Assembly (NCBI RefSeq): GCF_964355755.1
Contig: NC_092671.1
Span: 31,630,304-31,694,303 of the forward strand
Length of the DNA: 64,000 nt
Origin: Antedon mediterranea
Lineage: Eukaryota; Animalia; Echinodermata
Direction: 5' to 3'
Positions within the stretch are counted from its first letter, which is position 1; each line of letters begins with the position of its first letter. Below the pieces are notes generated by a model that saw only the letters and a program-made list of their open reading frames with translations, was not told where the DNA came from and ran no database searches. Position numbers and translations under genes: made by a program. Positions 10,298 to 10,339 of the stretch are shown here, in pieces.

Positions 10298-10339
<42 letters not shown>
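10298..10339 (+). other. Exact 42-bp ectopic copy of the 28S R2/Pokey/I-PpoI target region
   Basis: AGCGCGGGTAAACGGCGGGAGTAACTATGACTCTCTTAAGGT, identical to 28S at 18590-18631. Confidence 0.97.

Follow-up and report, generated by a model that had tools for sequence, protein, structure and literature searches.

An R2 target site copied into every spacer of an Antedon rDNA array: a probable repair-derived sequence predicted to be nicked but seldom filled

The closest described counterpart of the sequence reported here is the canonical 28S target of the R2 retrotransposons. For R2Bm, nicking requires a motif at -34 to -22 (RUM), a second motif at -6 to +1 (RASIN) and the spacing between them, position +1 is essential, and changes at the other positions tested and at +6 to +37 are tolerated (PMC10499050). 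The N-terminal domains of lineage-A proteins bind upstream of the nick only, from about -40 to -15 (PMC11204384). The lineage-A protein of the zebra finch nicks without 3' homology but does not then start reverse transcription, and it can cut both strands when supplied with non-priming RNAs (PMC12222951). The second-strand nick of R2 falls 2 bp upstream of the first (PMC12180492). A reading made from the sequence alone (hereafter the sequence-only reading) had also named the homing endonuclease I-PpoI and the piggyBac element Pokey as agents that might act on the site. Because I-PpoI is an intron enzyme of Physarum (PMC3679873) and Pokey an element of Daphnia (PMC3315735), both are unlikely to matter in an echinoderm host and R2 is the relevant agent; nuclear group I introns are moreover described as limited to microorganisms (PMC9223047).

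The window, by which we mean the whole stretch of 64,000 nucleotides of Antedon mediterranea DNA that was analysed, consists of six tandemly arranged rDNA units, each of about 9.7 kb. All six of its spacers carry, without a mismatch and on the + strand, the same 42-bp copy of the 28S helix-69/R2 site, at 10298-10339 (unit 1), 19997-20038 (unit 2), 29730-29771 (unit 3), 41681-41722 (unit 4, upstream of a duplication discussed below), 51719-51760 (unit 5) and 61402-61443 (unit 6). The 42-mer is also exact at five intact genic 28S sites (starting at 18590, 28343, 40292, 50321 and 60004), so that the window holds 11 exact matches, against 0.00 in 100 dinucleotide shuffles. In unit 2 the genic source site (18590-18631, +) is an exact match without an R2 insertion and lies 1.4 kb upstream of the spacer copy in the same orientation. 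The copy spans -41 to +1, the first R2 nick falling between -1 and +1, and its start lies 231-249 bp 3' of the 28S end defined by Rfam in the six units, a distance that depends solely on the number of 9-bp repeats in between. Its flanks bear no relation to the gene, and an extra T directly follows +1. The sequence-only reading had described just this arrangement, a perfect copy in every spacer about 240 bp downstream of the 28S, with unrelated flanks and one additional T, and every part of that description was borne out.

On its left the copy is preceded by a 9-bp tandem repeat (10175-10246 in unit 1, +), which comprises 7-9 copies depending on the unit and ends 51 bp before the copy, and by a pyrimidine tract. 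On its right a run of 27-28 T (10355-10382 in unit 1, +) starts 15 bp after the copy and is possibly a Pol I release element or a reversed poly(A). When the spacer and 5'ETS (19748-23270) were compared with 18S-ITS-28S at word size 7, the 42-bp piece was recovered with an E-value of 1.3e-18, and this comparison gave no other gene-derived match longer than 12 bp. The units are told apart by substitutions, deletions, insertions and repeat numbers of their own, and the array is therefore not one collapsed consensus. The six copies are a single event homogenised over the array and not six independent observations.

Several other features of the array were noted. The spacer at 10411-13063 and its equivalents contain about seven subrepeats of 320-420 bp, each made of a 5-bp microsatellite and a copy of the sequence that immediately precedes the likely Pol I start, and thus resembling a spacer promoter. 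An element of 2.2 kb with terminal inverted repeats of about 30 bp lies in an AT run at 32541-34770, where Pol I probably starts on unit 4; its target duplication is of 4 bp or 2 bp, and it probably disrupts the promoter of that unit. The 28S genes of units 3, 5 and 6 carry private deletions of 11, 24 and 25 bp and 4-8 substitutions relative to unit 4. Together with the two transposons inserted among the six units, these private changes suggest that the window covers a decaying or peripheral portion of the array. An antisense reading frame through the copy, examined by eye, was discarded: it has no start, the length of the T run breaks the frame in unit 1, and it falls below a cut of 150 aa.

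Over about 620 nt surrounding the site, the 28S equals, but for one difference in a comparison by eye, the Antedon bifida row in Table S2 of PMC13188248, and the other echinoderm rows in the same part of that table differ from the 28S of the window. The A. bifida row lists R2-1_ABif, whose printed ORF contains, by our own reading, three zinc-finger motifs and a Myb-like stretch; the same source places echinoderm R2s in the three-finger branch, and at the 5' junction of R2-1_ABif identity with 28S is kept only to -3 (PMC13188248). These sequences, together with a transposase relic in the window that is nearest to proteins of another crinoid, place the host at A. bifida or a species close to it, which likely has a lineage-A R2 with three zinc fingers that would bind only upstream of the nick.

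The -34 to -22 motif, as defined in PMC10499050, is intact in the copy, which matches the gene exactly, and the -6 to +1 nick motif stands intact at its native distance, since the copy contains no internal indel and ends at +1. The proposal of the sequence-only reading that the copy carries the R2 target sequence is thus upheld on sequence grounds, as both published recognition motifs are complete and correctly spaced. The downstream 28S homology for lineage-A priming is absent, an extra base standing at +2 and unrelated sequence beyond it. Because the recognition motifs and their spacing are kept and the priming homology is lost, we predict that the spacer copy is bound and nicked by the R2 of the host but only seldom and poorly filled, a prediction that applies to this host nicking rules derived from insect and bird R2 proteins.

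No R2 was found in the window, whether in the six genes or in the six spacers. Insertions were seen at none of the six spacer copies and at one of the six genic sites, where the inserted element is a DNA transposon and not R2; the suggestion that the copy absorbs insertions in place of the gene thus finds no support in these units. The occupied site belongs to unit 1 and is split into halves (3679-3699 and 8916-8940) by a non-autonomous DNA transposon of 5.2 kb (3700-8915, no strand assigned), which has terminal inverted repeats of 13-14 bp, CA..TG ends and a 4-bp target duplication at -24 to -21. Within it lies a probable relic of the C-terminus of a RAG1/Transib/Chapaev-type transposase (7140-7370, - strand), a type for which we take Chapaev to be the fitting label. 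The transposase relics (63-75 aa) share 71% and 64% with proteins of the crinoid Anneissia japonica that themselves bear no family name; the nearest named cluster is RAG1 (score 0.90, to be read as a lead only), and a search of the relics against Pfam gave nothing above the cut-off. Chapaev/Transib-type (CMCT) elements are defined by CA..TG termini and a target duplication of 2-5 bp (PMC12730594), and the 5.2-kb insert has both. A transposase of the clade, with a Chapa domain in Chapaev proper, also belongs to the definition, and on this side the insert offers only the short relics.

The transposon also contains internal repeats of 650 bp and belongs to a high-copy family. Among four runs compared, its left end had a high depth in the three of organism A, and the incomplete contig set contained none with this end from organism B. 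In runs X3 and X6 the main contig begins exactly at base 1 of the element, which indicates at least two types of flank; at least one flank is 347 bp long and of low depth, and in run X3, by our own arithmetic on an incomplete contig set, about 116 of about 1,460 depth units fall on flank contigs. The 5.2-kb element is possibly a member of an undescribed family that prefers 28S.

Unit 4 carries an extra segment of 343 bp (41720-42062, +) that begins at -2 of the spacer copy, hence includes the last three bases of the copy, and extends halfway into a spacer subrepeat. The segment starts like subrepeat 1 and finishes like subrepeat 2, which suggests a template switch within it. At its end (42062/42063, +) the junction shows no microhomology, and the sequence restarts at -2 of the copy. 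This restart coincides with the published position of the second-strand cut of R2 (PMC12180492), as a single case in one assembled unit. By simple arithmetic, the chance of a junction falling within -2 to +1 is about 4 in 3,520 spacer positions (~0.001), or about 4 in 360 (~0.01) if only the unique left spacer is considered. We infer that the structure of unit 4 is the trace expected when the left end of a break undergoes strand invasion and is afterwards end-joined to the right end. Of the insertions and breakpoints that the sequence-only reading had proposed to look for at the copy, the six units show one breakpoint, at -2, and no insertion (0/6).

Similar pieces were sought in the spacers of other eukaryotes by scanning metagenome contigs for a conserved motif near the 28S end. 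The scan yielded at least 98 loci from about 650 stretches, 80 of them with full flanks; leaving out 26 of the 98 with less than 300 bp of spacer gave 72 loci in 52 clusters. A pattern for the lineage-specific 28S end retrieved no metagenome contig. Pieces of the R2 site were present in the spacers of four of the 72 loci (L015, L027, L065 and L074). L015 has a 42-bp piece with 3 substitutions and both edges as in the window copy, accompanied by two inverted pieces. L027 has a 40-bp piece with 2 substitutions (95% to its own gene), L065 an 18-bp piece that is present twice, and L074 a 16-nt piece that may be due to chance. Judging from their rRNA, several of the carriers are presumably not animals, and R2 cannot then be the only agent.

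Pieces of other rRNA segments also occurred, a second LSU segment being represented in three loci from two clusters and 18S in one locus. In loci retained with their own gene (n = 40), five carried a gene-derived piece, of which three touch the R2 site (binomial P of 6e-5 to 2e-4 under a uniform null). With the null limited to conserved 18-mers the result was weaker (three of five clusters, P 0.018; four of six, P 0.0036). Shuffled spacers gave 1 match in 120. In a strict tile test (exact 15-mers, 67 tiles, 71 spacers), from which L060 was omitted because its match is its own longer 28S end, the hotspot tile was found in two loci and one other tile in one.

The individual loci show further detail. 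In L015 the three hotspot copies (42, 36 and 24 bp, two of them inverted) lie within a palindromic spacer repeat (+1419 to +2279 relative to the scan motif). In L027 some bases of the nick motif, elsewhere universal, are altered in the gene, and the spacer copy (-1054 to -1015) has the same change, which shows that it was derived from its own gene. The second LSU segment (window 19150-19176) appears as copies of 22-26 bp in L033 (+817), L066 (+868) and L050 (+519), in two clusters; we take this segment to lie just upstream of the L2449 intron region. The 18S piece, in the spacer of L040 (+534), is of 36 bp and matches window 14632-14667 at 92%.

The copy is absent from the sisters of L015 and from L056, a sister of L027 whose alignment ends about 80 bp before the position of the copy; it is likewise absent from about 1.1 kb of downstream DNA in L060, the locus nearest to the window in the tree. 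The tree, from which 18 near-duplicates were omitted, is weak, and the least number of changes forced by its starred branches is one, compatible with one carrier origin. Pieces that are missing from the nearest sisters and that in two loci are decaying agree better with repeated capture and loss than with a function conserved since long ago. Long-term conservation of the copy, which the sequence-only reading had proposed to look for in relatives, finds no support in these loci of other eukaryotes.

Taken together, we consider it probable, though by no means assured, that the copy is a repair-derived duplicate of the R2 site that was captured once, was fixed by concerted evolution and is bound and nicked but seldom filled. 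Under this explanation, break repair would have captured the 28S R2 recognition site once in a spacer, and concerted evolution would have spread the captured copy to all units. The R2 protein of the host would bind and nick the spacer copy, at which the 28S tail of the R2 RNA would pair at +1 only. As the tail would pair at that single position, the nicks would go to host repair and be resolved by strand invasion into another spacer and then end-joining, a process that would leave rearranged spacers of the kind seen in unit 4. If the gene were protected at all, this would be incidental. The left edge at -41 is accounted for neither by microhomology nor by a trace of the donor, so that the capture step itself is one that we infer. 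The perfect identity of the copy and its end exactly at the essential +1, an end found in L015 too, fit selection as well as they fit a recent origin.

Selection would be at work if the copy were a decoy that titrates the R2 protein, and perhaps also a DNA transposon that prefers the site, as a dead end for binding and nicking, doubling the number of sites and halving the hits on 28S. Its extent speaks for this: the copy coincides almost exactly with the footprint of lineage-A proteins and stops at the last base that nicking requires, while the change at +2 removes the homology needed for copying. In vitro, moreover, R2 protein does not leave a target that it has bound for a second one (PMC12222951), and the segment recurs in unrelated spacers, in L015 with both edges equal. 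We nevertheless hold a selected decoy to be unlikely, since a single copy per unit can dilute the target no more than twofold, a cut in the spacer still breaks the array, none of the six spacer copies is filled, and the comparative record is unfavourable: sister loci and the nearest locus of the tree (L060) are without the piece, and the copies of L015 and L027 have diverged from the gene sequence by 3 and 2 substitutions. A scar spread by concerted evolution, another origin put forward by the sequence-only reading, is better supported, except that the scar is not that of a classic R2 5' junction, R2 sequence being absent after the copy. That it nonetheless goes back to a genuine R2 5' junction, or to an internally deleted R2 in which deletion on both sides left the upstream 28S flank, seems to us improbable. 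R2 5' junctions do often carry duplicated upstream 28S bases, with large variation (PMC3774820), and a stutter of upstream bases stands next to the L015 copy; yet the 41 upstream bases exceed the 9-36 nt range of ribozyme cleavage (PMC3774820), the junction of R2-1_ABif stops at -3 whereas the copy reaches +1, and the homopolymer is of T where an R2 tail would be expected to be of A. Six flank probes of 11-15 nt were absent, on the + strand and in cells of 400 letters, from the R2 table text of PMC13188248, which for R2-1_ABif covers the first 400 nt and the 3' UTR. The 5' end of R2-1_ABif, compared by eye, does not match the right flank, and both a ribozyme-like fold and an Rfam match are missing. 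An R2 3' end joined to downstream 28S was also considered, and the spacer holds no downstream 28S piece. Two faint likenesses, of the right flank to the 5' end of R2-1_ABif and of the 9-bp repeat to the helix-69 loop (6/9), were set aside as too weak in AT-rich DNA.

We give little credence to the copy being a co-opted host element, that is, either a DNA site for a Myb protein of the Pol I terminator or fork barrier, or a stretch of the pre-rRNA 3' external spacer that mimics helix 69 as RNA. Its location is suggestive, in the terminator zone between the pyrimidine tract and the T27 run; it folds as the helix-69 hairpin, and it contains a heptamer that we take to resemble the yeast Reb1 site, a second such heptamer lying 140 bp upstream. 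A 7-bp site, however, needs no 42 bp of identity, and downstream of the LSU end in 69 loci the heptamer shows no enrichment over shuffles (2 observed against a mean of 1.8). The fold of the region is no better than that of shuffles (z +1.0) and consists of the helix-69 hairpin only, and no Rfam family comes near its gathering score. An artefact of assembly or consensus, finally, is very improbable indeed: the units are privately distinct and yet the six copies share their flanks, and the unit-4 duplication reuses the last three bases of the copy. Sequencing runs searched with a 494-bp query contained part of it in 20 of 24 rows, the fraction found being 0.67-0.92 for organism A, 0.61 for organism B and 0.46 for organisms C-E. 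Because only about 4 of the 39 words sampled are junction words, this search says nothing on the presence of the copy; the best run held 36 of the 39, and the probability that the missing words include all the junction words is 0.38, which leaves some room for an artefact. Capture by repair followed by concerted evolution remains the explanation that we favour.

The locus touches on how hosts limit R2 and on why rDNA spacers rearrange so fast, both open questions. A complete R2 recognition site that lies outside the gene, once per unit and without the priming homology, allows a direct comparison of gene and spacer. If such copies are common, they would be natural off-targets that are cut without insertion by R2-based gene insertion tools, and would distort counts of empty R2 sites made from short reads. 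Were the copy only a scar, it would still record a repeated route of one 28S segment into spacers. A broader and rather doubtful possibility is that eukaryotic rDNA spacers repeatedly recruit copies of the helix-69 hotspot as bind-and-nick dead ends, an arms-race decoy that would be gained, fixed and lost by lineage and would here be directed against a lineage-A R2 and possibly an undescribed 28S-preferring transposon of the Chapaev type.

A spacer copy of the R2 site is apparently new in print, as no account of one was found in the open-access literature, including the accessible parts of a review of rDNA transposons (PMC10946416) and of a 2026 review of R2 (PMC13580325). With the canonical 28S target (Wilkinson et al. 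2023, PMC10499050) the copy has in common all bases from -41 to +1 as well as the two motifs at their proper distance; it differs in being located in the spacer of every unit seen, in losing homology from +2 and in holding no R2. The duplications at R2 5' junctions, or SIDE (Eickbush et al. 2013, PMC3774820; PMC3414825), are likewise short copies of the sequence upstream of the nick that end near it, but they are tandem, genic, 13-28 nt long and joined to R2, whereas the spacer copy is 42 nt long, lies 1.4 kb away and is joined to spacer DNA. Pokey of Daphnia (PMC3315735; PMC10946416) resembles the 5.2-kb element as a DNA transposon in the same 28S neighbourhood, but is of the piggyBac type, while the Antedon element appears to belong to the RAG1/Transib/Chapaev type and has duplicated 4 bp of its target, at -24 to -21. 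As in the 3' UTRs of fish R2 and in non-specific R2 families (Kojima et al. 2016, PMC5035012), 28S target DNA has here been recopied elsewhere; in those families the copies ride inside the element, whereas the Antedon copy is part of the repeat unit of the host.
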